Shown here in pieces: positions 3,151-41,897 of a stretch of 64,000 nt of DNA; position 1 is the stretch's first letter; every line of letters begins with the position of its first letter. Source of the DNA: a virus (Duplodnaviria > Heunggongvirae > Uroviricota > Caudoviricetes); IMG/VR virus record IMGVR_UViG_3300045049_000270, one strand, 5' to 3'. A program made the position numbers and the translations under genes. The notes below the pieces were generated by a model, which saw only the letters and a program-made list of their open reading frames with translations, did no database searches and had not been told where the DNA came from.

Positions 3151-3336
3151 TTAGAGTAGCATCATACCCGATTGCTCAGTTGATTTGATTCGCTTCTTGA
3201 TTGCTTCGATCATTATTCGACGTTCGTCAACACATAAAGTCCAAGCTTCTTCACGTGGTAAACTACCTCTGGAATGCCACATCAATTCATGAATTTGTTC
3301 AGTTAGCTCATCTCGTTCCTGTTTTAGATATGCCAA
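3151..3336 (-). CDS. gp51-like baseplate hub/tail assembly protein, probably the C-terminal part of a -1 frameshift fusion
   Basis: EEAWTLxxDERxIMI pattern typical of gp51/GT-type chaperone tails; weak TTG start; frame stays open back to the slippery site at 3381..3387. Confidence 0.6.
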   Translation of the reverse strand: MAYLKQERDELTEQIHELMWHSRGSLPREEAWTLCVDERRIMIEAIKKRIKSTEQSGMMLL

Positions 3337-3374
3337 ATATTCTGGTATCTTTTCAGGTGAGGTATGGAGGAGCT

Positions 3375-4214
3375 TTACCCGAAAAAATTTGATGGATCAA
3401 ATTCAACCGTGGTTTTAAACAGTTCCTGGCATTTTGCACACTGTACTTCTTGATCCTTCTGGACACCAGCTTCATTAACTTTCTTTAGCTGTAATTCAAT
3501 TTTCTTTGTCCAATCAGCTGGAATATTATTGATAAAGTCACGAATCATGGATCGGTCGATAACCTGGCCCTCAGGAACTACAATCATCTCGATACTATCA
3601 ACGATTGATTCGACATTCATTTGATTGATACGATCAAAACTAATATTCAATTCGCGTTGTTTTTCTTCTTCTGAAGCGTCAGAATCTTCTAGAATCTGCA
3701 TCTTACGAGCTTCTTGAAAAGCTAGTGTGCTGATATTAGTGCTCGTAACCAGATTAAACGGACGAACATACACAATAACTTCATCGTTCAAACGAACAGG
3801 ATATTCAGGCTCGAGCGGGACCGCAGTATCAAGAATAGCTGAAATGCTAAATGCAAATGTGTTTTCGGCCTTGCATTTTGGACATTCGCATTCGATATCC
3901 ATTTGATCGCCGAATGTAGATGCACGAATAGCCAGTAGAACCGCGTCAACATCCGGTGTTGGGAGTCTTTGTGGATCAGCAATGTTTGGAACACAGCTAC
4001 GAATACATGATTCAATAGCATGGCCACTCATTAGCGCATCAGGGCTCTTCATAAGCATTTCATCGGCACCGCGCATTGGTAGAACGGGTACGTCGCCATT
4101 TGGGGCAAATGTGACGTTTCCTTCTGGTTGGAAACGACCTCCACTCGGCAATCGTACATTTATACCAGGAGCACGATAATATTTTGCCAAAGGATTTGGA
4201 GTCATAGATGTCAT
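3375..4214 (-). CDS. gp26: T4 gp26-like baseplate hub subunit / tail assembly chaperone
   Basis: NPLxxYxR, LPSxG, two CxxC pairs, C-terminal NFF; late promoter upstream. Confidence 0.75.
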   Translation of the reverse strand: MTSMTPNPLAKYYRAPGINVRLPSGGRFQPEGNVTFAPNGDVPVLPMRGADEMLMKSPDALMSGHAIESCIRSCVPNIADPQRLPTPDVDAVLLAIRASTFGDQMDIECECPKCKAENTFAFSISAILDTAVPLEPEYPVRLNDEVIVYVRPFNLVTSTNISTLAFQEARKMQILEDSDASEEEKQRELNISFDRINQMNVESIVDSIEMIVVPEGQVIDRSMIRDFINNIPADWTKKIELQLKKVNEAGVQKDQEVQCAKCQELFKTTVEFDPSNFFG

Positions 4215-13703: not shown

Positions 13704-13732
13704 AAAAACGGGGAACAATGTTCCCCGTTTTT
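13704..13732. terminator. Bidirectional terminator
   Basis: AAAAACGGGGAAC-aat-GTTCCCCGTTTTT. Confidence 0.85.
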
Positions 13733-14091
13733 TATTGGCTAATGAATAAGCCCTGTTGTGCCATCTGCCCTACAAAGTTACCTAAATTCTTTTCAACTTG
13801 AATTCTGACAATTTTGTATCCATTCTTTATAGCCTCTAGATTTTCTCTAGCATCCTTTGTTTCTTTCGATAATTTGATGCCTGCTCGTGCTTTATTTCGT
13901 TTACGCAATCGTTCTTTATGTACATCGTCTACTAGGATTGCACCAGGAAACAATGCTCTATATGAGTCAAAGGTATGACCATGAATCTTCAGATGAGTTG
14001 CTGTGATGATTCTAAAAGATTTAGAGCATATTTGGCATATCGGATATGTATCTGTTGTCATTATTAAACGTGAAATAAATATTTGGCACAT
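13732..14091 (-). pseudogene. Internally deleted homing endonuclease remnant
   Basis: CQIC...HLKIH zinc finger, truncated NUMOD3-like GIKLSKETK joined to a DUF559-like GYKIVRI tail, with no catalytic core. Confidence 0.55.
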
Positions 14092-14108
14092 TATACAGGA
14101 ATTTGGCT

Positions 14109-14531
14109 ATGCGCTTTCAAGAAATCACTGAACTCTTTGACAATAGAGCAAGTTGGCATTATACCAAAATCGATAAGAATCAAGTTGAAGCCACATTTAC
14201 TATTGGTGAAAACACGCATATAGTTGGCTTTGGTATTGTTGATGTGAGTGAAGAAGGTGATACTTGGGAAGTGGCTTTTGACACCAATCGTCAATTTGAT
14301 ATGACTGGCACTGGTAATGCTTATACGGTATTTGCAACTGTGGCCAATGTCATTCTGGACTTTGTCAAACGGGCGAAACCATATAGAATAGAATTCTCAG
14401 CAGAGAAAAATGAAGGATCAAGAGTGACAGTTTATAGGAAGATGGCTAAACAATTGGCATCAAAGATTGGTTATAATATTGAAGAAGAACAACGTTACAT
14501 AAGCGTATATTACGTATTGACTAGAAAATAA
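14109..14531 (+). CDS. Putative internal head protein
   Basis: ATAAATA at 14075; N-terminus MRFQEITE resembles a T4 capsid-targeting sequence. Confidence 0.7.
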   Translation: MRFQEITELFDNRASWHYTKIDKNQVEATFTIGENTHIVGFGIVDVSEEGDTWEVAFDTNRQFDMTGTGNAYTVFATVANVILDFVKRAKPYRIEFSAEKNEGSRVTVYRKMAKQLASKIGYNIEEEQRYISVYYVLTRK

Positions 14532-14557
14532 AAGAGGAGCGATTGCTCCTCTTTTAT
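14528..14557. terminator. Bidirectional terminator between convergent genes
   Basis: ATAAAAGAGGAGC-gatt-GCTCCTCTTTTAT. Confidence 0.85.
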
Positions 14558-14832
14558 TAATTATCACGTTGCAGAATATTGGCTATTAATACTGTATTGT
14601 TGCTGACATCGAGTATTTCATATTTGCCATTCGGCTCTCGAATTAAAAATTTGTTATTCAATAGTTTAATTGTTGAATGATTCAATGACAGTCGTTCATA
14701 AATCTTTCTGCCATCAGAAATCATATCAACATATGATTTGATGCATTCATGACGTTCTATGATTTCTCCATTTCTATCGAATGCAGTAACAGTCCATGCT
14801 TTGGTAGAATATATCCACTCACCAATTATCAT
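14557..14832 (-). CDS. Small paralogue, family A (divergent)
   Basis: Last gene of the coupled array; ends ILDVSNNTVLIANILQ. Confidence 0.7.
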   Translation of the reverse strand: MIIGEWIYSTKAWTVTAFDRNGEIIERHECIKSYVDMISDGRKIYERLSLNHSTIKLLNNKFLIREPNGKYEILDVSNNTVLIANILQRDN

Positions 14833-15095
14833 TAATTGTATTCCTCATCGTAGCCATACTGCAACATAATTTGCATCATGTCTCCATCAGTATCAAGCAG
14901 AAATTCGTCATCACCAATCAGTAATCGTACGGTTTTGTTATACGTTAGTTGTTTACGTTTATGCCAAGCAAATTCAAGAGCGGCTTTCAACGTTTTAATG
15001 TAAGTATTAACCATCACCTGACGTTCAAAATCTGGGGCACTCACTGTCCATTTATATGCAAGGTCGCCAGTACTTCTTATGATTATTTGCATCAT
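14832..15095 (-). CDS. Small paralogue, family A
   Basis: C-terminal LLDTDGDMMQIMLQY. Confidence 0.8.
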   Translation of the reverse strand: MMQIIIRSTGDLAYKWTVSAPDFERQVMVNTYIKTLKAALEFAWHKRKQLTYNKTVRLLIGDDEFLLDTDGDMMQIMLQYGYDEEYN

Positions 15096-15346
15096 TTAGA
15101 ATATCTTAATAGAAATGCTACCACGTCTGCATCATCTAATACGTCAAGGAACGTCTTCCCTTCACCAGTATACACACTAATCGTTGATGGATACTTCAAT
15201 GCTTGGTGATACTTCTTCACTTCATCTACTGCTTCTTTAGCTGACTTTACCTCAAAGATATCCCATTTACCAGATATACCACGCCGTAGATGAATGAATA
15301 TATCGTTACCAACTATTTGGATTGCAATCTCTCGATTTACAGTCAT
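15092..15346 (-). CDS. Small paralogue, family A
   Basis: C-terminal DVLDDADVVAFLLRYS. Confidence 0.8.
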   Translation of the reverse strand: MTVNREIAIQIVGNDIFIHLRRGISGKWDIFEVKSAKEAVDEVKKYHQALKYPSTISVYTGEGKTFLDVLDDADVVAFLLRYSK

Positions 15347-15624
15347 ATTGCTTTGAGCATAACGTACATAAGATCACCATCTGTTTCAATGGTGTAAACT
15401 GTTCTATCTTTGAAAATTACACGAATTGGTGCATCTTCAATTGCGATATTCTTCTCGTTCATATGATTCATAGCTGCATCATATGCTGTTCTAAAGTCAG
15501 CAAAACAATCAGCAATGCGATATACAGAAAAACCATCTAATAACAGAGTTTGACGCTTATATAGAAGCCAATGTGGCTTCTGATTTAACGCTTTATATTC
15601 AATAGAAACTTCTGAAGGTTTCAT
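15343..15624 (-). CDS. Small paralogue, family A
   Basis: C-terminal TIETDGDLMYVMLK. Confidence 0.8.
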   Translation of the reverse strand: MKPSEVSIEYKALNQKPHWLLYKRQTLLLDGFSVYRIADCFADFRTAYDAAMNHMNEKNIAIEDAPIRVIFKDRTVYTIETDGDLMYVMLKAI

Positions 15625-15938
15625 AGTGTATATCGCAAAATAAGTTGAACTATGTCAAATTCATCAAATAAGTTGATTTGAAGAGTTTCTTCTTCGTCTA
15701 TGTTCTTGATATTGATCAGGCAACCCATCATGAAGGGGTGAGTCTTGTATTTGAAACGAATCGTATCAATTACGTCTCTGATCGTATTCACACGAATTTC
15801 ATGACTATCGCAAATGTCATCAAATTCTGGGAAGATGATTGTCCAATTGTAATCTGGATCTACTTCTTCGCTATATCGCTCTACCGTGATTTTTTTACGA
15901 TTATGAGTATTATTTGGTACTACTATCATATTCTTCAA
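15621..15938 (-). CDS. Small paralogue, family A
   Basis: C-terminal NLFDEFDIVQLILRYT. Confidence 0.8.
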   Translation of the reverse strand: MKNMIVVPNNTHNRKKITVERYSEEVDPDYNWTIIFPEFDDICDSHEIRVNTIRDVIDTIRFKYKTHPFMMGCLINIKNIDEEETLQINLFDEFDIVQLILRYTL

Positions 15939-16197
15939 TTCTCAATAACAACGAAATCATATCGGTGTCATCTGCTATGATTTCAAATTCTGATGTATTA
16001 TCATTGAAATCATGACGCACAACAAATGGATAACCTTTCAACTGTTTGGTGACCATTATGGCTTCACGCTTTGATGCAAAACTTTGCAGTATTGTGTTAT
16101 ACCACAATACTGACAATTCTTCTAAATCGACATTAGCAGATAAAAACACAATTGATGTGCCCACACCCAACCAGACTACAGGAGTTTTGGTTATCAT
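15910..16197 (-). CDS. Small paralogue, family A
   Basis: C-terminal IIADDTDMISLLLR. Confidence 0.8.
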   Translation of the reverse strand: MITKTPVVWLGVGTSIVFLSANVDLEELSVLWYNTILQSFASKREAIMVTKQLKGYPFVVRHDFNDNTSEFEIIADDTDMISLLLRIEEYDSSTK

Positions 16198-16532
16198 TTC
16201 GAATCAGCAGTGAGAATGTGAACCATCGCGTCACTTTCAGTTTCTACTAATTCGAAAAACCCAGACATCCAAGATTTACCAAGCCCTTCTGGACGAACTT
16301 CCAAATATATTGGTAAATCTTTGAAAGCTTTAACCATCTGTTTGGCTCTGAATATCCGTTTAAAAGCGGTGCCAAGAGATTTATGAGTTTCACGCTCTGA
16401 ATCAAAACTACAAAGTCTCATACTGAGAGCTTTGCCATATGCACGCAATGGCAAACATACCTGCCATTCGTTATGACCACGAACAATGACAAGCATTGGA
16501 TCGTAATATTGGGTATAGTTGAATTCTACCAT
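16194..16532 (-). CDS. Small paralogue, family A
   Basis: C-terminal LVETESDAMVHIL. Confidence 0.8.
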   Translation of the reverse strand: MVEFNYTQYYDPMLVIVRGHNEWQVCLPLRAYGKALSMRLCSFDSERETHKSLGTAFKRIFRAKQMVKAFKDLPIYLEVRPEGLGKSWMSGFFELVETESDAMVHILTADSK

Positions 16533-16846
16533 TAACTGTATTTCAAAATTAATTCAATCAATTGAACATCACTACAATCGGTCAAATCCCCAGATTGATT
16601 ACCATCTTCGGTTACCAATATAATTGGAAATTGTTTGTAATTCTGATCATTTTTTGAATACTGTTCTTTTTGTTCTTTGGCAAATTTTATACTTTCAGCC
16701 AAACTTTTAGTGAAATTAGTGACAACAGATGAAGTGGTTACAACAATTTCACCATTCAAAATAATGTAACTTGGTTTTGCGTTAATCCAATTACCAATTC
16801 TATTTCTATAAATGGTAAACCAGGGCTTAATTTCATCATTCATCAT
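16532..16846 (-). CDS. Small paralogue, family A
   Basis: C-terminal DCSDVQLIELILKYS. Confidence 0.8.
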   Translation of the reverse strand: MMNDEIKPWFTIYRNRIGNWINAKPSYIILNGEIVVTTSSVVTNFTKSLAESIKFAKEQKEQYSKNDQNYKQFPIILVTEDGNQSGDLTDCSDVQLIELILKYS

Positions 16847-17124
16847 TGATAACTCAAAATAGCAACAAGATGATCATCGTCATTTGCAAGAATATGAGGT
16901 TCTTCACTTTGTGAAAATATTACAATTGGCAGCTTATGATAATAAGGTGTGAGATCCCTTATTATCTTCATAGCGTTGTATGCATCCATGAAATTGCTGT
17001 ATTCGAGCCCCGTATTAGGACCAAAAGCTGGTTTCCCTGTATGTGCTGTGGTCATTAACGGATATGTGAATTTCCAGCCAAATTCATATTGAATCAACGA
17101 TAAGTGAAAAACAGGTAATATCAT
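16843..17124 (-). CDS. Small paralogue, family A
   Basis: C-terminal ILANDDDHLVAILSY. Confidence 0.8.
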   Translation of the reverse strand: MILPVFHLSLIQYEFGWKFTYPLMTTAHTGKPAFGPNTGLEYSNFMDAYNAMKIIRDLTPYYHKLPIVIFSQSEEPHILANDDDHLVAILSYQ

Positions 17125-17417
17125 AAGTACGCCAAAATTGCTGCTACAACATCACTATCTGTTTCGATTTCCATCCATTGACCATTTTTCATGACAATGA
17201 TTGGAATATCAGTTAATTCTGCATTTTCTTCTTTTACTTTAAACGCGTCACTGATAGCATTTTTCAATGGTTGATATTGAGCTTGCTCATATATGTCATG
17301 ATCATCATAGAAGATGAGTAAGTCGTGTTCATAATACCAACTAGGGACTAGAACAGCAAAAGCATCAGCGGTTGTTGAGTAGAAAATCCCAATGTTGTAG
17401 AAATCTAGAGGTTTCAT
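17121..17417 (-). CDS. Small paralogue, family A
   Basis: C-terminal EIETDSDVVAAILAY. Confidence 0.8.
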   Translation of the reverse strand: MKPLDFYNIGIFYSTTADAFAVLVPSWYYEHDLLIFYDDHDIYEQAQYQPLKNAISDAFKVKEENAELTDIPIIVMKNGQWMEIETDSDVVAAILAYL

Positions 17418-17647
17418 TTTGAATACTTCAAAATTGCAAGTAATGCATCATTTTCACTTTCGACGACAAAAACACCGTCTTTTTCCATTAGGAGAATTTC
17501 CAGATAGTTCAAATAATCGTAATTTACCCGCAAATTCGCTGCCGTTTCTAGTGCCTGCGTGAAAGTCAGCCGTTCAATCCATGTATTATATGAAGGATAG
17601 ATCCTTTCAGGATCAGGATATCGGACAACCCAAGGTTTCTTTTTCAT
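17414..17647 (-). CDS. Small paralogue, family A
   Basis: C-terminal VVESENDALLAILKYS. Confidence 0.8.
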   Translation of the reverse strand: MKKKPWVVRYPDPERIYPSYNTWIERLTFTQALETAANLRVNYDYLNYLEILLMEKDGVFVVESENDALLAILKYSK

Positions 17648-17677
17648 CTTGGTGATATGTTATTGTTATCGCTTTTC

Positions 17678-17986
17678 TCATAATCCACTGTATTTCAAAA
17701 AGAACTCTAGAGCGGCGATCTCATCGTCAAGATAAACTCGGTCACTATTACAAACCATGATAATTGGTAGTTCACCGTACATCTCAGGTGCCAAAGTCTT
17801 CAACTTTTTAGCTATTCGTATCGCATCATTCAAATCAGTAGCACGATCTTTGCTGTACATAACATCACCAGATACTGACCAACGAAGAAACTCTTTGCCG
17901 TTAAGTGTTGGCCATTTGACAACCCATTTTGTATATTTGGCAATAATGGCGTCAGTCTCCAACATAATGTAAATCTTCTCAGACAT
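17678..17986 (-). CDS. Small paralogue, family A
   Basis: C-terminal YLDDEIAALEFFLKYS. Confidence 0.8.
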   Translation of the reverse strand: MSEKIYIMLETDAIIAKYTKWVVKWPTLNGKEFLRWSVSGDVMYSKDRATDLNDAIRIAKKLKTLAPEMYGELPIIMVCNSDRVYLDDEIAALEFFLKYSGL

Positions 17987-17990
17987 TACA

Positions 17991-18425
17991 TCATCCCATT
18001 AGCGATAGATCCCCTAGGATCGACGCCAAATCGTCTTTCGGACCAAATACATATCCGCACGTGTCCAGTGGAATCAAATGCGTTACAGAGCCGTCTCGTA
18101 GGGGATAGGTAGGATCATGACATACACCACACACATGGCCTGCTTGAACAGCGGCCAAGAGTTTCTGCTGAAGAAGCGTTCCATCGACACTCAAAGTAAT
18201 GGCGGTGCCAAACCCACGATCACCCTTCCAATGATCGAACAGAGCACGTTCAAAGTCTGAACGAGTGCCATGCTTCATGACATTCTCGAATAAGTTGGTA
18301 GCATGTGAACCCTGGGCAACTGCTTTGCCAGGGTTCATGCTGGCAAGATCTGTGCGCATCAGGATATAGAGGCATGGCTCAGATGAATATGAAACTGCGT
18401 TCTTTTGTTTTTCTTTTGACATCAT
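17991..18425 (-). CDS. pth2: Peptidyl-tRNA hydrolase, Pth2 family
   Basis: YILMRTDLxxMxPGKAVAQGSHA signature and C-terminal TCxxxFGP...LxL. Confidence 0.85.
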   Translation of the reverse strand: MMSKEKQKNAVSYSSEPCLYILMRTDLASMNPGKAVAQGSHATNLFENVMKHGTRSDFERALFDHWKGDRGFGTAITLSVDGTLLQQKLLAAVQAGHVCGVCHDPTYPLRDGSVTHLIPLDTCGYVFGPKDDLASILGDLSLMG

Positions 18426-18815
18426 TCACTCCAATGGTAGAGTGAATGGTAACACTAACTCAGTGACTTGTGTATGGTTTGGCAACCAGTTTATCTGAAA
18501 TGGCTTTCACTATGAGTTCATTTACTACTGTAACAACAGATCTAGCATCAAAGAGCCCGCCAGCATAGCTCATGTCTGGGCGAACACCGAATACATGATT
18601 CCAGCAGTAAGCAAGCCTAGCTTATTCGGTGTAAGCCTAATAGATCCATATGGTGTATATAGGGTTCGGTCTTCACTGCTCATAAGCTCACGCAGTAAGT
18701 CGACTGTAAAGATTGCATGCGATAGCAGCATATTAGGAACCTCTACATACAATACGTGTAAGAGTAACACACATGCAGATGAGTAGTGTTAAAACCGTGT
18801 TAAACGTATTAGGTA

Positions 18816-18843
18816 TTGACTAGAAGGCGGTATCGTATAGACT
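18816..18843 (+). promoter_or_regulatory. Sigma70-like early promoter
   Basis: TTGACT-16 nt-TAGACT. Confidence 0.55.
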
Positions 18844-18868
18844 GCATTTTTCATTAGGATTGGCAACG

Positions 18869-19048
18869 ATGAAAACCCTAGACGAATTTATCGGCACGAT
18901 ATTGACAGAGGATGAAATCGAACAACTACAAGAACAAGGCGTTCGCGTTAAACGCCCTGGATTCATGTACACCATGGAGTTCATCGGTAGTCGTGTAAAT
19001 GTTCATTTGGATAAACAAAATATGGTTCTTGGAATCAATCAGGGTTGA
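18869..19048 (+). CDS. Peptidase inhibitor I78 / potato inhibitor I-like protein
   Basis: VRVKRPGFMYTMEFIGSRVNVHLDxxNxVxxIxxG matches the family pattern RV..PG...TMD....R.NV.LD....V..V..G. Confidence 0.7.
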   Translation: MKTLDEFIGTILTEDEIEQLQEQGVRVKRPGFMYTMEFIGSRVNVHLDKQNMVLGINQG

Positions 19049-19068
19049 TCTTGGTAAGCTTGCCTTGA

Positions 19069-19338
19069 TTGGCAATAAAGTTTGCCATATCATCTATGTT
19101 TTCAAAACATTCAAATAAAATGAACGAAATCGTAGTCAACAACACTCAACAGCAAGTGACAGCGTCTTTTGATCTTCTGAATTTCATAATTAGTATGACA
19201 GAAGAAATTCTGTCAGATGTGGAATTCGCTTACCCCCGCAATGAATTTGATGAAGAACGAGCTAATACGATGCTACAAAAAATCCAAGGGGAAGCACGAG
19301 CGTTAAAGACCGTGGTCGAAAATATTAAGAAGTCATGA
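19069..19338 (+). CDS. Hypothetical protein
   Basis: Helical ORF with ATGA overlap to the next gene; start uncertain. Confidence 0.6.
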   Translation: MAIKFAISSMFSKHSNKMNEIVVNNTQQQVTASFDLLNFIISMTEEILSDVEFAYPRNEFDEERANTMLQKIQGEARALKTVVENIKKS

Positions 19339-19631
19339 TCTTCTTGATGCCCTTGATTGAAAATCGTAGATCAAGAAAATACTGGCAAGTCAAAGCAGGA
19401 ATCAAAATCGACGTTGTTGGGAAACGTATACGTAATTTTGATTTCAAAGATGACAACGCGCTGCAATTCAAATCCTTCCGTGAAGCCATGTTATTTGTCA
19501 AGGAAAAATGGGGATTCCCGATTGCAATATCAGACTGGGTTTTCGGTTCAGAACCAGCCTCTAACGTGCATGACGTAGAGATCGTCATGAATGAAACGGA
19601 AGCCATACAAGCACTTCTTCAATACACATGA
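19335..19631 (+). CDS. Small paralogue, family A
   Basis: SFREAM helix, FPIAI, C-terminal IVMNETEAIQALLQYT. Confidence 0.8.
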   Translation: MIFLMPLIENRRSRKYWQVKAGIKIDVVGKRIRNFDFKDDNALQFKSFREAMLFVKEKWGFPIAISDWVFGSEPASNVHDVEIVMNETEAIQALLQYT

Positions 19632-27488: not shown

Positions 27489-27570
27489 CAGCTAATTTAA
27501 TGTAGGAAATGCGCAGTTTCGGGTAACTCCAGATAAATACTCTACAAAAGTATTTTTGGAGGATACCCAT

Positions 27571-30459
27571 ATGGCAACATTGCTCAGTCCCGGCGTCGAC
27601 GTCGAGATTACAGACGAGTCATTCTATAATTCGTCTGGTAACGGTACCGTCCCTCTGATTGTTTTCGCAACAGCGGAAAATAAGGCTTCCCCAACAGGTA
27701 CAGGTATTGCTCCTGGTACTGTTCCGGGTACTGCTGGCCAGTTGTACAATATCTCCAGCCAGCGCGAGCTAATTCAGACATTCGGTAATCCACATTTCGA
27801 TTCAGTTCAAGGGACCACAGTTTATGGTTCCGAACTTAACGAATACGGTTTGCATGCAGCTTATCAATTCCTGGGTATCAGCAACAGCATTTATGCGCTG
27901 CGTGCTGATATCGACTTGGGCCAATTGCAACCAAACCAATCAGCACCAGTTGGTGCGCCAGTTAATGGTACATTCTGGTTTGACACAGCTGATACATTAT
28001 TTGGTGCATTCCAGAGTTCAGGTGCAACAAACACGTTGAATCCATTCAGCGTAAAGAATGTAACAGTTTTCTCCAGCACTACACAGTTGGATTCAAATGG
28101 TTACCCATTGGCAACCTTGGGTCAAGATGGTGATTTTGGTATTGTTACTGCCAATGCACCATTTATGATGTTTGAACGTATCAACACGAACAATGTCAGC
28201 GCTTGGTATCCAATTGGTTCCAAGGGTTGGACTTTGGCTAAGAATATTTTGCGTGGTTCAGCAGCGGTAGGTGCAGGCGGCATAACAGTTGCTCAAGGTG
28301 ACACCTTCTCAATTAATGGTGTTGCGGTCGTGGTTGGTACTGACACTTCGGCAGCTGGTATTACAACAGCAATCAACACGGCAATTGCTGCATCAAATCA
28401 ATCTGGTCTGATTACTGCATCATATGATTCAGCTGGTCGTATCATTCTTTCATACGCAGTTAACATGATTCTGGCTAATGTTGTTAATACACCATTGGCT
28501 TACTTGAATCTGGTAGCTGGTACTTATAACAGTGTTAAACTGACATTTGCTCCACACAACAAGATCCCACAAGGTAGCACCCAGGGTGATGTTTGGATTA
28601 AAACTACAACACCAAATCAAGGAGCCAATTACGTTGTTAAGCAATACAGCTCAACAACTGGATCATGGACAACTTTGACGGCCCCGTTGTATGACAACGA
28701 TGCAGATGCCAGCGCTGGTATTGGTGGTACTGTTCCAACTGGTTCAGTTTATGTTCAATATGATGCTGCTCCGTTGAACAATTATGCAACTGCTAGTTTC
28801 GATCTTCGTTATTACAACGGTTCGGCGTGGACAGATCTCGTTTTTGAACAAAGTGCAACTGCACCAACAACAGCACCAGCACAAGGTACATTGTGGTTCA
28901 ATAACGACTTCCAAGTTGATATTATGTACACCGATGGTGAATTGTGGCATGGTTACAAGAACCAATTTCCAAATACTGATCCAAATGGTGTAATTCTTTC
29001 TGGTTCAGCACCATTGTTGCAAACAGATGGTACATCATTGGTAGATCAAGACCTGTGGATTGATACGTCAGATCTTGAACACTATCCAAAGATTTACCGT
29101 TATGTAGCTGCGACTAAGACATGGACATTGCTCAATAACGCAGATCATACAACTCCATACGGTATTGTTTTTGCTGATGCACGCACAAATAGTGGTCCAG
29201 CTTATACTGGTTCTGGTACGAACTATAACTTCAACTCAGTTCTAGCAGCTGATATGCTGGTGTCAAACTATGTGGATCCTGATGCTCCTGATCCACGTAC
29301 ATATCCACTTGGAACATTGTTATTCAACACACGTTATTCAACATATAACGTGAAGAAGTGGGAACCAAACTGGTTCAACAAGGGTGGCTTCGAGACGGCA
29401 ACTGACTTCACACAAACATCATACAATGTGGGTGAAGCTACAGTCACATTTCCACCAGTAACAAATGCTGGTCGTTGGGTAACAGCTTCTGGAAACGATG
29501 TAACTGGCGCACCATACATGGGTCGTCATGCACAACGTCAGATGATTGTTCAAGCTTTGGCAGCACAATTCGCAAATAACCAGCAAATTCGCTCAGAAGT
29601 AGTTTTCTTCAACTTGATCGCTTGCCCAGGATACGTTGAATTGTTGAGCGAAATGGTTACTCTGAATAACGATTGTAAGGAAGTGGCTTTCATCGTTGGT
29701 GATACACCAGCACGTTTGACTCCAGATTCAACATCAATCTCACGTTGGGCGACAAACACAAACAACGTTGCGACTGATGGCGATAATGGTTTGGTGACAA
29801 AGAATCGTAACATTGGATTGTACTACCCATGGGGTTTCAGTACAAACATTGACGGTACTAACGTTGTAGTTCCACCATCAACGATTGCCTTGTACACCTA
29901 CGCATTTAACGATCAAATTGCTTACCCATGGTTTGCACCAGCAGGTTTCACACGTGGTTTAGTATCAAATGCGACTTCAGTTGGTTACTTGGATTCAACA
30001 AAGAATGATGAGTATGTTTCAGTTATTCTGAACCCGGGCCAACGCGATACTTTGTATACAAACAGCATCAACCCAATTGCATACATTCCAAATCGCGGTT
30101 TGGTAGTTTACGGCCAGAAGACTTTGGATCCGCTGTCACAAGCAACAGATCGTGTAAATGTGGCTCGCTTGTGTAACTACTTACAGTATCATTTGGATTT
30201 GGTTGCCAAGCCATTCTTGTTTGAACAAAATGATCAACAAACACGTGATGCGTTCCGAGTAGCGATTGAACGTTTCCTGAGTGGTCTAGTTGGTTTGCAA
30301 GCTCTGAATGACTTTGCTGTTGTTTGCGATACATCAAACAACACACCAGCTCGTATTGATGCAAATGAATTGTGGTGCGATATCTTTATCCAACCAATCA
30401 AATCAATTGAGTTCATCTACTTGCCAGTTCGTATACAGAACACTGGTGCAACACACTAA
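27571..30459 (+). CDS. gp18: Tail sheath protein (T4 gp18-like) with large insertions
   Basis: LLSPGV N-terminus, PWFAPAGFTRG, INPI, GQKT, DRVNVARL, PIKSIEFI; GGAGG RBS; ATAAATA at 27533. Confidence 0.96.
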   Translation: MATLLSPGVDVEITDESFYNSSGNGTVPLIVFATAENKASPTGTGIAPGTVPGTAGQLYNISSQRELIQTFGNPHFDSVQGTTVYGSELNEYGLHAAYQFLGISNSIYALRADIDLGQLQPNQSAPVGAPVNGTFWFDTADTLFGAFQSSGATNTLNPFSVKNVTVFSSTTQLDSNGYPLATLGQDGDFGIVTANAPFMMFERINTNNVSAWYPIGSKGWTLAKNILRGSAAVGAGGITVAQGDTFSINGVAVVVGTDTSAAGITTAINTAIAASNQSGLITASYDSAGRIILSYAVNMILANVVNTPLAYLNLVAGTYNSVKLTFAPHNKIPQGSTQGDVWIKTTTPNQGANYVVKQYSSTTGSWTTLTAPLYDNDADASAGIGGTVPTGSVYVQYDAAPLNNYATASFDLRYYNGSAWTDLVFEQSATAPTTAPAQGTLWFNNDFQVDIMYTDGELWHGYKNQFPNTDPNGVILSGSAPLLQTDGTSLVDQDLWIDTSDLEHYPKIYRYVAATKTWTLLNNADHTTPYGIVFADARTNSGPAYTGSGTNYNFNSVLAADMLVSNYVDPDAPDPRTYPLGTLLFNTRYSTYNVKKWEPNWFNKGGFETATDFTQTSYNVGEATVTFPPVTNAGRWVTASGNDVTGAPYMGRHAQRQMIVQALAAQFANNQQIRSEVVFFNLIACPGYVELLSEMVTLNNDCKEVAFIVGDTPARLTPDSTSISRWATNTNNVATDGDNGLVTKNRNIGLYYPWGFSTNIDGTNVVVPPSTIALYTYAFNDQIAYPWFAPAGFTRGLVSNATSVGYLDSTKNDEYVSVILNPGQRDTLYTNSINPIAYIPNRGLVVYGQKTLDPLSQATDRVNVARLCNYLQYHLDLVAKPFLFEQNDQQTRDAFRVAIERFLSGLVGLQALNDFAVVCDTSNNTPARIDANELWCDIFIQPIKSIEFIYLPVRIQNTGATH

Positions 30460-30476: not shown

Positions 30477-30512
30477 ATGGTTCTGCCAATTGTAAAAGAT
30501 TGGCAGAACCAT
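30477..30512 (+). terminator. Stem-loop terminator
   Basis: ATGGTTCTGCCAAT/ATTGGCAGAACCAT. Confidence 0.65.
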
Positions 30513-30525
30513 TACCATTGGAACT

Positions 30526-30864
30526 ATGAAAAAAGAAAGAAATTTCAAGATCCGCATTCATAATCTGGACTTAACTACCACTACATTTTTTGTAGCCGCC
30601 GAAGATCACGCCGAGGTATTCCGTAGATTTTCCGGCATCATTCGGAACAAAGGTTATGTGGAATCTCGATCCTACTGGCGTGGATATCACCAACAGATTA
30701 ATTTACATAATTATAATCGTATTGTAGCGATGAGTACCCGCCAGAATTGCAAAACCCGAACATATTATTTCATGCCAGTCAATACCCAAAAGTCAGCATT
30801 TCGACTATCATATTCAGATCGAGTAAAAATTGAAGTAGCCATGGAAGTCACAAAACTGAAATAA
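30526..30864 (+). CDS. Hypothetical protein
   Basis: 112-aa ORF. Confidence 0.65.
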   Translation: MKKERNFKIRIHNLDLTTTTFFVAAEDHAEVFRRFSGIIRNKGYVESRSYWRGYHQQINLHNYNRIVAMSTRQNCKTRTYYFMPVNTQKSAFRLSYSDRVKIEVAMEVTKLK

Positions 30865-30867
30865 TAT

Positions 30868-30896
30868 TTGCTTGATTGCTTGTCAATTGTTACTAT
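30868..30896 (+). promoter_or_regulatory. Sigma70-like promoter of the candidate ncRNA
   Basis: TTGCTT-17 nt-TACTAT. Confidence 0.6.
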
Positions 30897-30901
30897 CTAT
30901 G

Positions 30902-31138
30902 AAGCTGTAAAGCTAGTGGGCGAAGGGCTTCACTGTCCTGAACCTATAAAGTCTTCTACTGGTGACTAGGCTGCGTTTGGCAGAACGCACAATGGTAGGT
31001 CTCGATTAGCCTCGAGGGGTAGAAAGACATGTGTGAGTTTACACACTAAGTCCACTAGGGTATGTTCACGGTTAGTCTACCCGGCCTGCCCGACTAAGCT
31101 GCCCCAAGTGCGCAATTGGGGTAACCGTGAGCTTTTTT
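30902..31138 (+). ncRNA. Candidate structured non-coding RNA of unknown family
   Basis: GC-richer than its flanks; at least 8 nested stems; own promoter; closing stem followed by T6. Confidence 0.65.
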
Positions 31139-31209
31139 CATCTAAATTAACTGCGTCTATATCGTTCTTCAATAAATACGAGTTGGATATCCAACTTTGG
31201 AGGAACGAT

Positions 31210-31797
31210 ATGTCTTCTACACTTTCACGCTTTGGCGTACCATTGGGCGGCGGTGCCGGTCGTGGTGGTATTCTTCAGCCAAAGGTAAAGTACAAGTTCC
31301 GCGTTCGTGTAATTAACTTTGGACCACTACAAGGTGGTATGGAACTGTCACAACAGGTCATGTCTGTTGGTCGTCCAAAGCTTGCTCATGAACCTGTAGC
31401 TGTACACTCATACAATTCAACAATGTACTACCCTGGTAAGGGTCAGTACGAAGCCATCTCACTGAAAGTACGTGACGATGTTACCAACTCAGTGGCAACA
31501 CTAGTTGGTTATCAAGAACAAAAGCAATTGAATCACTTTGACCAGACAAGCGCATTGGCTGGTATCAATTACAAGTTCAATATGTATATTGAAACCCTGG
31601 ACGGTGGTGACGACACTGTTCTGGAACAATGGTACTTGGAAGGTTGCTTCTTGGCTAACGTTGAGTATGATGAATTTGAATACTCAAGCTCAGAAGTGAT
31701 GACAATCACAATGAGCATCCGTTATGATAACGCAACACAAAGCGGTGGCTTGATGCCAACAACAGTTCAATTGCTGACAGGCTCAATGCTCGGTTAA
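31210..31797 (+). CDS. gp19: Tail tube protein (T4 gp19-like)
   Basis: QPKVKYKFRV, WYLEGCF, IRYDNA; ATAAATA at 31172 and GGAGG RBS before ATG 31210. Confidence 0.88.
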   Translation: MSSTLSRFGVPLGGGAGRGGILQPKVKYKFRVRVINFGPLQGGMELSQQVMSVGRPKLAHEPVAVHSYNSTMYYPGKGQYEAISLKVRDDVTNSVATLVGYQEQKQLNHFDQTSALAGINYKFNMYIETLDGGDDTVLEQWYLEGCFLANVEYDEFEYSSSEVMTITMSIRYDNATQSGGLMPTTVQLLTGSMLG

Positions 31798-38231: not shown

Positions 38232-41200
38232 ATGATCGATTTTAGTGAACTTGCCCTTGAAACCTTTCAGGTACTTCGTGCCTATGGTAAGGATATTGTA
38301 CTCTATGACGAAAATGGTAACCGAGTATTTGAACCATCAGACGCTCGCCGTTTCTATCTGTCGGATGACAACATCCTTGTCAGTGTGCTTGAAGATGGCG
38401 ATAACAGTTCGATCAAGGTTTACTTGAGTGGTAACATCACCATTGCAGAAGTTATGGAATTTGTGACAGTGCTTCGCCGCATTGCCACCCAATTTAATGT
38501 TCTGTTCAATGTGCGCAAGTACAACAAACAAATCGTGCCACGTGATTTCGCAACCCAAGCGGCGGTTCAAGAGCAACAGGAGTATTCTTCAATGAACATT
38601 ATGGAAGGTTTGTACGGTACGAGCAAGAGCTCGTACCTGAAGCTTGAAAATGCTCGAATGATCGTTCGTCATAGCGCTCGTGTTAAAGAAAACATGATCG
38701 GTGGACGTGGTCGTTCAATTCAGAGCATCTTCGTAGAAAACGCAAAGGGTGAACGTTTCTTGTTCCCTGTAAACGTTCTGTCAGGCGCCCGCGCGATGAC
38801 ACAACACGTTAACCACGGTGGCACATTTGCTGATGAAGTTGGACAGCAAATTATCCGTATGGCGCAAGATTTTTCAAATCTGGCAACCGTTGCTAATCAC
38901 ATTCATGTTAATCAAGATGCATTACCAGGCCAAGCCCTGAAAATGCGTGAATCGATTCGTGAAAGTGCAAAGGCGATCCGTCTAAGTTTTGAACGTATGT
39001 GTCGAGATTTACCAGCCTACATTCGTGAAAGCGAACGTATTACTGCCGCGCAATCTTTGACAGAGTCACCGGAAGCATTTAGTGAACGTGTTGAAATGTT
39101 ACGTTCCTTTTTGATGGTAGAAGGTGTTGAATTGGCGGATTCTGTTCTTGAAACAGTATGTCATCGTGTTGCTGTTGAAGAAGATATGCGCCCAAATGCA
39201 AATCCTTCTGATGGTGAAGAACCACAAGATGGCAATAACTATGCTGATCAACAACAAGAAAAGACTGCTGTTCAACCAAAGCAACCAATTAAGCCAATGA
39301 CTCCTGGTCAAAATCAAGACTCTGATGACAATGTGTATTCAGGCCAAGATGGTGCATTCCATGAAGATGAAGACATGGCAAATGCCGATCCAGACGAAGA
39401 ACTGGCTGAAGAAAACGAAGTAATTCGTGCATTTGAAGCATGGATGGATGAATTTAATCCTGATTCAATGTTTGAGGGTAAGTCATACAAGCACAACGAT
39501 GACGACGAAGAGTCTGCTGACGAGAAGAAAAAGCAAGACAAGGAACGCCGTGAAGAGCGCGAAAACAAGAAGCGTACTGACGAATCAGTTGAAGAATTGA
39601 AAGCTAAGGTGGAAAAGCTGTCAAAAGAATATGCTGATTGTGATGACTTCCCAACAGCACGCCATGAAATCAAGGCTGAGTTGGATAAAGCGAAGGAAGA
39701 ACTGGCTAAGGCTGAATCTCTGGAAGAAGGCAAATCATTCAAGCGTAACAAGGATGAAGACGCCGACGACAAGAAGAAGCAAGACAAGCAACGTCGTGAC
39801 GATCAAAAGGGTAAGCAAGAACGTACTGACGAAAGCGTTTATGGTGCTAAGTGGTTCAAGAACAAAGGTCAATGGCTAGATGCTGTTCATCACATCAATG
39901 TTGATGACGACAATGGTTCAGCTGCTTCTTACGGTGGTAAGCTAGTAGCAAAATGGTATGATGACCGCAATGAAGGTTGGGTAAGCGATGCCCACATGCA
40001 TGTATCAGAAGGAAATATAGAAGAAATGAGATTCCACGAACTTAATGCAATGCTCGAGGGTAAGAGCTTCAAGCGTAATAAAGATGACGATGCAGATCAA
40101 AAGAAGAAAGATGATCAAAAGCGTCGTGAAGAACGTCGTAAAGAACCTGTCGAAGAAGGTAAATCCTTCAAACGTAATGATGACGAAGACGGTGATGTAA
40201 AGCAAAAGCGCAAGGAAGACCAAAAACGTCGTGAAGAACGCAAGCAAGAACCCGTTGAAGAAGGCAAGAGCTTTAAGCGTAATAAGGATGACGACGCTGA
40301 CGCGAAGAAGAAGGAAGATCAAAAACGCCGTGAAGAAAAGCGTCGTGAGCCAGTAGAAGAAGCTGAAAACATTAAGAAGGGTGCTTTCCATAAGTGGCTG
40401 GGCAAGTCAGAAAACTCACCAATTACTGATGCTGATATCAAGAAGGGCCTCAACTCACGTGATCCACATGCTCGCAAGATGGCACAATTTGCCAAGAACA
40501 TGGAAAAGGCACATGAGTCTGTAGAAATGGACGAAGGCAAATCATTCAAACGTAATGATGAAGAATCAAAAGGTAAGAAGGATAAGCATGAAGAGCGTCG
40601 CAAAGCACGAGAAGAAAAGAAGCGTACTGACGAAGCCGTAAGTCCTACCACAATGGAAGTTCTTCGCGACCATGGTTACGATGTTGAATTTGTTCCATCA
40701 CATATGCGTAATAACGATGATTATCGTCATGATCAGTGGACAGTTACACACATGGGTGAATATAGTGACTTCCCAGATGTGATTGGCAAGGTTTATGATC
40801 AAGATGAGGGTTGGGAATTGGCTGCTAGACATTTCCAGAAATCCGGTGGGATGACACCAAGCACTGGTGCTGAACTGGGTGAAGGCAAGAGCTTTAAACG
40901 TAACGATGACGACGATGCTCAATCCAAGAAGGAAAAGGATCAAGAACGTCGTAAAGCACGTGATGAAAAGCGTCGTACAGACGAAGGTGCCAAATTCGAA
41001 ATGGGCCCACTTGACATTGAATATGCGTTCCCATCTGGTGGCAAATACGGCTTCTCGAATGAAGCTGATGGTTGCTACTATACTGATGGTGTAAAAGTTT
41101 GGAAGGGTGAACGCATTAGTCCTTACGCTGAGGACTTCTTGGAACGCTCAGCGGCGAATCTTATAGCACAGATGAAAGAATTAATGAAAGCTGGTGCATT

Positions 41201-41897
41201 GCAAGAAGTTGATGGTGAGATTGATGAAGCATCAGACCTCAGCTTCAACGATGCTAAGGCTGAACTGCCACAAGTCAAGGATAAACTTAGCAAGATGAGT
41301 CCATTCCATCCTGATTATATCAAGATGAAGGCACGTCTGAATAAATTGCAAGACCGTCTGTCACGTATGCAAGATGACGAATTGGATGAAGACGATATGC
41401 ATCACGAACAATGGCACGTTTTCGATCATAATGATAATCCAGTTGATGGTCCATTCGGTAGCAAGGAAGAAGCAGAACAACGTTGCCGCCGTGGCGAATA
41501 TCCAAAGTTCACTGGTCGCCATGTTTCCGAAGCGTCAGATATCAGCTTCAATGATGCAAAGGCTGAACTACCAGATGTCAAAGATCGTCTGAAGAAGATG
41601 AATCCTTTTCACCCAGATTACGTGAAAACAAAGGCACGTCATGACAAGCTGCAAGATCGCTTGGCACGTAATGGTGGCGACGAAGAAACAGATGAAAGTT
41701 ATGTTTCTGGCACAGCTGGTTATTCTGGTGACACTTCAGACGTTATCGAAGATTTGTGCAAAGACGATTTCATTATGCCACGTGATCAAGCTCATGGCTT
41801 AGCTGATGAAGTTGAAGCTAAGGATAAGGACGGTCATCCGGTAGATCAAGCTATGATTGATCGCATGCGTACACTTGCTGGTTTGAACAAAATCTAA
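38232..41897 (+). CDS. Large head-associated repeat protein (probable polyprotein)
   Basis: ATAAATA at 38196; globular N-terminus (GERF, GARAM), 7 EGKS(F/Y)K(R/H)N repeats, 2 ASDxSFNDAKAELP repeats, C-terminal RMRTLAGL. Confidence 0.8.
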   Translation: MIDFSELALETFQVLRAYGKDIVLYDENGNRVFEPSDARRFYLSDDNILVSVLEDGDNSSIKVYLSGNITIAEVMEFVTVLRRIATQFNVLFNVRKYNKQIVPRDFATQAAVQEQQEYSSMNIMEGLYGTSKSSYLKLENARMIVRHSARVKENMIGGRGRSIQSIFVENAKGERFLFPVNVLSGARAMTQHVNHGGTFADEVGQQIIRMAQDFSNLATVANHIHVNQDALPGQALKMRESIRESAKAIRLSFERMCRDLPAYIRESERITAAQSLTESPEAFSERVEMLRSFLMVEGVELADSVLETVCHRVAVEEDMRPNANPSDGEEPQDGNNYADQQQEKTAVQPKQPIKPMTPGQNQDSDDNVYSGQDGAFHEDEDMANADPDEELAEENEVIRAFEAWMDEFNPDSMFEGKSYKHNDDDEESADEKKKQDKERREERENKKRTDESVEELKAKVEKLSKEYADCDDFPTARHEIKAELDKAKEELAKAESLEEGKSFKRNKDEDADDKKKQDKQRRDDQKGKQERTDESVYGAKWFKNKGQWLDAVHHINVDDDNGSAASYGGKLVAKWYDDRNEGWVSDAHMHVSEGNIEEMRFHELNAMLEGKSFKRNKDDDADQKKKDDQKRREERRKEPVEEGKSFKRNDDEDGDVKQKRKEDQKRREERKQEPVEEGKSFKRNKDDDADAKKKEDQKRREEKRREPVEEAENIKKGAFHKWLGKSENSPITDADIKKGLNSRDPHARKMAQFAKNMEKAHESVEMDEGKSFKRNDEESKGKKDKHEERRKAREEKKRTDEAVSPTTMEVLRDHGYDVEFVPSHMRNNDDYRHDQWTVTHMGEYSDFPDVIGKVYDQDEGWELAARHFQKSGGMTPSTGAELGEGKSFKRNDDDDAQSKKEKDQERRKARDEKRRTDEGAKFEMGPLDIEYAFPSGGKYGFSNEADGCYYTDGVKVWKGERISPYAEDFLERSAANLIAQMKELMKAGALQEVDGEIDEASDLSFNDAKAELPQVKDKLSKMSPFHPDYIKMKARLNKLQDRLSRMQDDELDEDDMHHEQWHVFDHNDNPVDGPFGSKEEAEQRCRRGEYPKFTGRHVSEASDISFNDAKAELPDVKDRLKKMNPFHPDYVKTKARHDKLQDRLARNGGDEETDESYVSGTAGYSGDTSDVIEDLCKDDFIMPRDQAHGLADEVEAKDKDGHPVDQAMIDRMRTLAGLNKI

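Follow-up and report, generated by a model that had tools for sequence, protein, structure and literature searches.

A pseudoknotted RNA core set in a tRNA-like frame and conserved among unrelated phages

Between the tail sheath and tail tube genes of a phage genome lies a structured RNA whose fold is real and conserved, and whose core occupies the anticodon-arm position of a tRNA-like frame. It belongs to an RNA family that is nearly restricted to phages, is uncatalogued and moves between unrelated phages as a module. The RNA was studied in a stretch of 64,000 nucleotides from IMG/VR virus record IMGVR_UViG_3300045049_000270, referred to here as the window. Tentatively, and arguing from sequence comparison, we propose that this conserved, covarying RNA, which is probably a stable transcript of its own, may serve in trans as a decoy or scaffold, shaped like a tRNA, for proteins of RNA processing and repair, including Ro60 where the phage encodes it. 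The features of the window that matter here are the following.

27556..30459, + strand: tail sheath gene (context)
30526..30864, + strand: ORF of 112 aa behind the sheath gene and directly 5′ of the RNA; kept in the nearest relatives only
30868..30896, + strand: putative sigma-70-like promoter, TTGCTT (30868-73), 17 nt, TACTAT (30891-96)
30903..30914, + strand: P0, a 5′ hairpin with a GNRA tetraloop (GUAA or GCAA); five syntenic copies aligned, jumbo-phage clade only
30913..31058, + strand: tRNA-shaped frame, a four-way junction closed by P1 (30913-21/31050-58); covariation
30924..30939, + strand: hairpin AGGGC/GTCCT (30924-28/30935-39) in the D-arm position, abutting the invariant UGAAC; covariation
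30939..30949, + strand: core motif A, UGAACCYAUAA, in which CCUA at 30943-46 is the pseudoknot's 5′ strand
30951..31028, + strand: core three-way junction closed by P2 (30951-60/31018-28); covariation
30961..30970, + strand: core motif B, GGUGACURGG, with the 3′ strand of the pseudoknot, UAGG, at 30967-70
30972..30989, + strand: hairpin P3, TGCGTT/AACGCA (30972-77/30984-89); covariation
30990..30997, + strand: core motif C, consensus UAANGRUA (CAAUGGUA in the window), an unpaired junction strand
31000..31017, + strand: hairpin P4, CTCGA/TCGAG (31001-05/31012-16), of variable length; covariation
31031..31046, + strand: hairpin in the T-arm position, GTGTG 31031-35/CACAC 31042-46, with a 6-nt loop in the window; covariation
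31064..31138, + strand: 3′ domain, a branched hairpin (closing stem 31064-74/31122-32) followed by U6 at 31133-38; clade-specific
31173..31212, + strand: TAAATA (31173-78), which we take to be a T4-type late-promoter word, then the tail tube gene's ribosome-binding site and start codon
31210..31797, + strand: tail tube gene (context)

The order is hairpin, UGAACCYAUAA, 5′ strand of P2, GGUGACURGG, P3, UAANGRUA, P4, 3′ strand of P2, hairpin.

Conservation of the fold and signals for its transcription

The original prediction placed a promoter, a series of helices and a run of six T in this region, and all of these words lie where it had put them. Nevertheless, folding energy alone gives the 241 nt no support: for the whole, z is -1.05 and 36 of 200 shuffles fold equally well. 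Taken separately, domain 1 reaches z -2.48 and domain 2 z -2.17. It is the homologues that decide, and on their account the fold of the stretch is accepted. As had been anticipated, relatives could be collected upstream of tail tube genes; 11 loci were found by the tail tube protein, and four of them (L001-L004) carried a related spacer. Together with the window these four form a syntenic set, found by tail-tube synteny without the use of any RNA motif. In this set, 94.0% of 217 cells in domain 1 are paired, against 81.3% in shuffles and 36-49% when the pairing is slid. Both-sided change is seen in 21 of 44 domain-1 pairs, including five of the nine in P1 and six of the ten in P2, which is 100% paired; none of 500 shuffles reaches such values. 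All the proposed domain-1 helices (P1, AGGGC/GTCCT, P2, TGCGTT/AACGCA and CTCGA/TCGAG) covary in the five copies, with a covariation score of 0.55 versus 0.28 in shuffles. The covariation that had been asked of the RNA is also present in the model-fitted alignment, which leans towards the model (0.556, against 0.195 in shuffles and 0.12-0.19 when slid).

Other parts of the proposed structure had to be amended. There is a helix where GTGTG/TACAC had been suggested, with CACAC at 31042-46 as the best partner strand. A suggested pseudoknot, ACCTAT/GTAGGT, shows no compensatory change and has one pair broken in three of the five copies; the alternative pairing GGGTAGA/TCTACCC finds no partner at a constant place in the homologues, and the inner domain-2 hairpin TTAGTC/GACTAA is not kept. 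Instead of a unit of about 235 nt, what is conserved is a core of about 105 nt in a frame of about 145 nt, the 3′ domain being that of one clade.

The true pseudoknot and the GNRA-capped hairpin at 30903-14 were absent from that prediction. CCUA (30943-46) pairs with UAGG (30967-70) inside helix P2, and the general form is CCYA/URGG. Because the motifs were partly set by the search patterns, their positions were freed one after another. With Y and R independent, 70 true-looking loci comprise 37 U-A, 32 C-G, no C-A and a single U-G, the last in a likely chance locus; pairing is mixed in 22 other loci. Among 94 representatives under 80% identity, this position is U-A in 57 and C-G in 37. With both middle positions free, the two strands are complementary in 74 of 76 distinct hits (CCUA/UAGG in 43, CCCA/UGGG in 28, CUCA/UGAG in two and CCAA/UUGG in one), and the two non-complementary hits are in coding sequence and lack P2. 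When UGAA of motif A was freed, it was retained in 40 of 41; for motif B, GAC was retained in 67 hits, and only two of the 29 hits without it look like true members. The second A and the G of motif C are invariant in 65 aligned rows. In effect, about 20 near-invariant bases in three junction strands surround a 4-bp pseudoknot, and the helices vary freely.

The RNA is likely made as its own stable transcript, to judge from conserved promoter-like sites. A sigma-70-like site lies 25-60 nt upstream of the core in 13 of 91 representatives (2% of shuffles), and an intrinsic terminator lies downstream of it in nine of 89 (1% of shuffles). In the window, the promoter words are present and their position is kept in relatives, although their score is 8 of 12 and a simple promoter scan did not call them; likewise, the T run does follow the 3′ domain, but a simple scan called no terminator there. 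The plus strand, favoured from the start, folds more stably than the minus strand in 87 of 94 representatives. In copies such as L026, L077 and L115, the RNA is enclosed by its own promoter word and terminator, and a second promoter word serves the next gene. Across the family, the genes downstream encode tail tube, DNA polymerase, HNH, tRNA or unknown products. Since they vary, a leader reading is disfavoured, in agreement with the earlier view that this is not the UTR of the tail tube gene. A coding reading was also rejected, as the GTG-started frame at 31033 only prolongs the tail tube frame upstream, and the latter possesses a ribosome-binding site of its own.

The family, its frames and its neighbours

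The window comes from a jumbo myophage of T4-like type and contains genes for portal, major capsid, sheath, terminase and tail tube; its nearest relative is a complete 524-kb record (G001). The tail tube protein shares 65% identity with its counterpart in Sinorhizobium phage Phosso and 56% with the one in Agrobacterium phage Atu_ph07. Behind the sheath gene, a 14-bp inverted repeat (30477-30512), kept as a hairpin in L001 and L002, is probably the sheath terminator. The 112-aa ORF that follows matches no Pfam family, a protein search gave one homologue, and it is no family-wide partner of the RNA. The gap between sheath and tube genes is an insertion hot spot: in the related phages at L013 (Atu_ph07), L014 (PA5oct) and L005-L011 it is taken by Ro60 with no RNA beside it, by a homing endonuclease or by other ORFs. 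Elsewhere in the window, a highly charged protein of 1221 aa with many EGKSFKRN-type repeats is encoded directly behind the terminase gene (38232-41897), and about 20 small minus-strand ORFs (54-144 aa) stand in a row behind the major capsid gene (13732-19606).

Beyond this gap, a two-motif pattern found 111 viral loci, some of them by chance. A stricter pattern found about 130 metagenome stretches and a single match among 185,579 GTDB genomes, located in an uncultured bin on a contig of 4.4 kb. Combined, the patterns yield 144 distinct cores, which fall into 94 clusters under 80% identity and are carried by unrelated lytic and temperate phages. These include jumbo phages, phages of about 100 kb and two integrase-bearing phages of about 42 kb that share almost no genes. 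A covariance model, R1, yielded 78 matches in 96 sources; it finds the window at 30908-31058 with 92.8 bits, the window having been in its seed. From outside the seed, it finds a copy at 288268-288417 of the cultured phage Phosso, accession PV764938.1, where the RNA is unannotated, and none in Atu_ph07, PA5oct or G050. Against cultured phages, blastn with the window RNA and three other members gave nothing significant, and with the Phosso copy it gave only that copy itself. One locus (L037) holds two divergent copies of the core within 1 kb on the minus strand (2422-2565 and 3329-3415).

In the frame, UGAAC has a hairpin adjoining it in 66 of 92 representatives; among shuffles, the share is 25%. 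Some copies are plainly tRNA-like, with an acceptor-like stem, a D loop with GG and a 7-nt T loop; such T loops occur in L137, L191, L021, L126, L146 and L428, with UUCRAAU-type words in several homologues, and an ACCA end is encoded in L211 and L428. Directly 5′ of one fully tRNA-framed copy stands a TnpB/Cas12f-like gene (L021:2722-3837). Other copies have the closing stem alone, of 5-6 bp in L059, or no frame. In the window, the four-way junction of the frame takes its jumbo-phage form, preceded by the GNRA hairpin and followed by the branched 3′ domain.

The 3′ domain differs between lineages. That of the window is replaced in Ro60-linked jumbo-phage copies by about 200 nt ending in GAUCGR, and is missing in many others. 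The longer domain is multi-branched, with common AGUAG and CGAA words, and occurs in L127:4430-4640 (Phosso), L250-L257, L071, L067, L028 and L029; Ro-less relatives have a domain of about 70 nt in its place. The ~200-nt domain may be the Ro-docking part or a separate RNA. A second non-coding stretch (GGGUUAUCUU...GGUCCAAGUCGUCCGAAAGGAUG) is shared by Phosso and G042 (L127:4650-4800; about 400-500 nt after the core in L250), stands after the long RNA and before the next gene, and is possibly another RNA. At L015:2290-2420 (minus strand), ARAGORN calls the 3′ domain, a cloverleaf that folds strongly, as tRNA-Gln, and the short 3′ domains may derive from tRNA genes.

With regard to neighbours, 14 of the 66 representatives whose flanks are long enough have a tRNA on the same strand no more than 300 nt away, which in one case is the RNA's own 3′ domain, versus none of 16 chance loci; the other 52 of the 66 copies have no close tRNA. 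Two small temperate carriers, G029 (complete) and G004 (54% complete), have no tRNA genes in their available sequence. L034 has an RNA ligase gene directly beside it. Of the 49 RNA-bearing records searched for TROVE, 15 have it (eight of 19 near-complete ones), 13 of them within 4 kb and on the same strand, and three directly upstream. Phosso, which has TROVE/Ro60 beside the RNA, is additional to these 15. TROVE was not found in the other 34 (11 of 19 near-complete), the nearest complete relative included. Conversely, the RNA is present in 14 and not in 65 of 79 phage Ro60 neighbourhoods, a search whose query came from a carrier and in which a few loci are cut short; Atu_ph07 has Ro60 at the sheath-tube spot without the RNA. 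In a FastTree tree of 83 proteins, those Ro60 sequences that are linked to the RNA are spread over at least three separate parts. Many Ro-linked copies represent one jumbo-phage clade at an insertion hot spot. As homing endonucleases also occupy the sheath-tube gap, part of the Ro60 link may reflect a shared insertion site. In a 296-kb phage record, a wcaG RNA (RF01761, over the cut-off; L257:1537-1652) lies between the RNA and Ro60.

What the RNA may do

In the reading that we tentatively prefer, the RNA would be transcribed from its upstream promoter or within tRNA operons, and its tRNA-like frame would let the ends be trimmed and protected. The invariant unpaired bases of the core would dock an RNA-handling protein, usually one of the host and Ro60 where it is present, and the role would be to shield phage RNA metabolism from host attack. 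The frame is read as a device for processing and protection because acceptor-stem sequences differ among copies, a difference that would accord with protected ends more readily than with aminoacylation. In most cases the host would supply the partner protein, as the RNA has no phage gene for a constant companion: by blastp, no protein family is common to the window and all eight genomes compared, and an obligate phage protein partner was rejected on this basis.

The lack of an obligatory phage protein also suits the main rival, which we consider doubtful, namely that the core belongs to a new ribozyme class, which cleaves itself or processes RNA, inside a protective tRNA-like frame. The near-invariant junction strands around a small pseudoknot, with helices free to vary, point the same way, and motifs B and C recall what we take to be the P7 and J8/7 words of group I introns. 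In addition, the RNA starts a few bases from the 3′ end of a tRNA in L059, L235 and L227, as theta ribozymes do (PMC10879173). Nevertheless, no Rfam ribozyme or intron model matches and no P7-like helix is conserved after motif C. In many copies the RNA's own promoter lies a few bases before its start, which leaves nothing upstream to be cut, and P1 closes the ends. A fuller version is unlikely, in which the core, as the catalytic centre of such a class, is carried by unrelated phages in natural tRNA-shaped scaffolds and set next to tRNA arrays, Ro60 and RNA ligases so as to process or repair RNA.

It is decidedly unlikely that the core is an aptamer for a small molecule, serving as a trans-acting sponge for a host signal or as a riboswitch. 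Its size and pseudoknot, like the invariant purines of its junction, are features typical of aptamers, and in one clade the RNA ends 15-30 nt upstream of a gene start. However, the downstream genes have no common pathway, there is no conserved expression platform, and the next gene in the window has its own late-promoter word. A cis-acting transcription element, such as a signal for antitermination or for processing at the 5′ ends of transcription units in phages, would explain why the RNA is often right behind a promoter-like site and within tRNA arrays. It is very improbable, given the copies in which promoter word and terminator box the RNA in and the next gene has a second promoter word; furthermore, the closed 5′/3′ ends and the encoded CCA suggest a released RNA. 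The poorest candidate, hardly credible, is a decoy that mimics the decoding region of 16S rRNA (h44/h45) for the factors or nucleases acting there: the best score of motifs B and C in the E. coli rRNA operon is at 16S 1479-1507 and one of 200 shuffles reached it, in a test devised after the likeness had been noticed and with a gap of 1-3 nt allowed, but similar words also match 23S 2068 and 2243, so that rRNA readily yields such word matches, the pairing of the bases is another one (P3, P2), and model R1 finds nothing significant in the operon.

Several narrower ideas were rejected. Anticodon mimicry by YAU fails, as the pseudoknot takes these bases up in its pairs and they do not stand in register with the D arm. 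An intron in a tRNA would leave no anticodon arm once the core was removed. Complementarity of UGAACC to a tRNA T-loop word is short enough for chance, and the word is partly paired already. Mimicry of the 23S peptidyl-transferase centre rests on word matches, with other pairing and no covariation between motifs A and C.

The fold is compact and strongly covarying, is nearly limited to phages, and is present beside a Ro60 gene in the cultured phage Phosso, whose host, Sinorhizobium meliloti, is harmless and genetically tractable. The RNA would be a new ribozyme or aptamer class, or a new effector domain for tRNA-mimic RNAs. It is a natural case of a single cargo domain in interchangeable tRNA-like frames.

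Comparison with known RNAs

The RNA had been judged to be none of the familiar kinds and a new structured RNA of phages, and both opinions are upheld by its covariation and by the following scans. When the window was scanned with Rfam 15, together with 52 loci that are homologous or neighbouring, the RNA matched none of the families, tmRNA, RNase P, SRP and 6S included. ARAGORN found no tRNA or tmRNA in the window; the anticodon-arm position holds the core. Among known self-cleaving ribozymes and group I introns, no Rfam model matched, and there are no conserved bases or P7 helix after motif C.

A tRNA-like frame whose anticodon arm is replaced by a pseudoknotted insert is also the plan of tmRNA. 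Unlike tmRNA, the new RNA has no ARAGORN or Rfam call as tmRNA and shows no tag reading frame and no conserved alanine identity in its acceptor stems. GOLLD and ROOL are far larger than the new RNA. They too are structured non-coding RNAs of unknown function near tRNAs in phages and prophages (PMC5737381), but the new RNA has no Rfam match. Theta (HDV-like) ribozymes are phage RNAs that abut tRNA 3′ ends (PMC10879173); in contrast, the new RNA is a three-way junction with a single 4-bp pseudoknot to the 5′ leader, matches no ribozyme model, and lies away from tRNAs in most copies. In T4, rnaC and rnaD (NC_000866.4) are described as having "yet unknown functions" (PMC9697503). Like the new RNA, they are phage RNAs, of 120-140 nt and in a tRNA cluster, and rnaC ends in a T-arm-like hairpin; however, neither matches model R1 and none of the three core motifs is found. 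The role of stable RNAs of phage tRNA clusters is a long-open question that the Phosso copy makes directly testable.

No description of the RNA was found in the literature searched; the Minerva preprint, in the part available, concerns other RNAs. In three supplementary files of Fremin et al. 2023 (PMC10690425), which lists 8,495 IMG/VR candidates, no motif word was found, and a fragment of the RNA could be listed among those candidates.

A further parallel is with YrlA and phage Y RNAs (PMC4201824), such as Yrl1 and Yrl2 of phiLo (PMC12135203), which also have tRNA-like arms and a closed 5′/3′ stem. The YrlA covariance model (RF02553) gave nothing over the cut-off and not even a sub-threshold match on the RNA itself; in G022 (C1:61693-61829), a full-length sub-threshold YrlA-like match lies just upstream of Ro60 and the new RNA just downstream of it. 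The Ro-binding word of Y RNAs, GNCGAAN0-1G (Chen et al. 2014, PMC4201824), occurs in the window at 30919-25, yet in only three of 94 representatives, none of them Ro-linked. As both the model and the word fail, the RNA is not classed as a Y RNA. Most carriers also lack Ro60, and the arms of the new RNA stand in normal D-to-T order around a large pseudoknotted core. On the other hand, some copies end in CCA, as in Y RNAs, and in 13 of 49 records and in Phosso the RNA is on the same strand as Ro60 and less than 4 kb from it, with no TROVE in the nearest complete relative, G001. In phiLo, the phage Ro60 binds phage RNAs and host PNPase (PMC12135203), and phage TROVE proteins were placed in RNA repair by Iyer et al. 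(PMC7824862). The new RNA may work like a Y RNA in some lineages.
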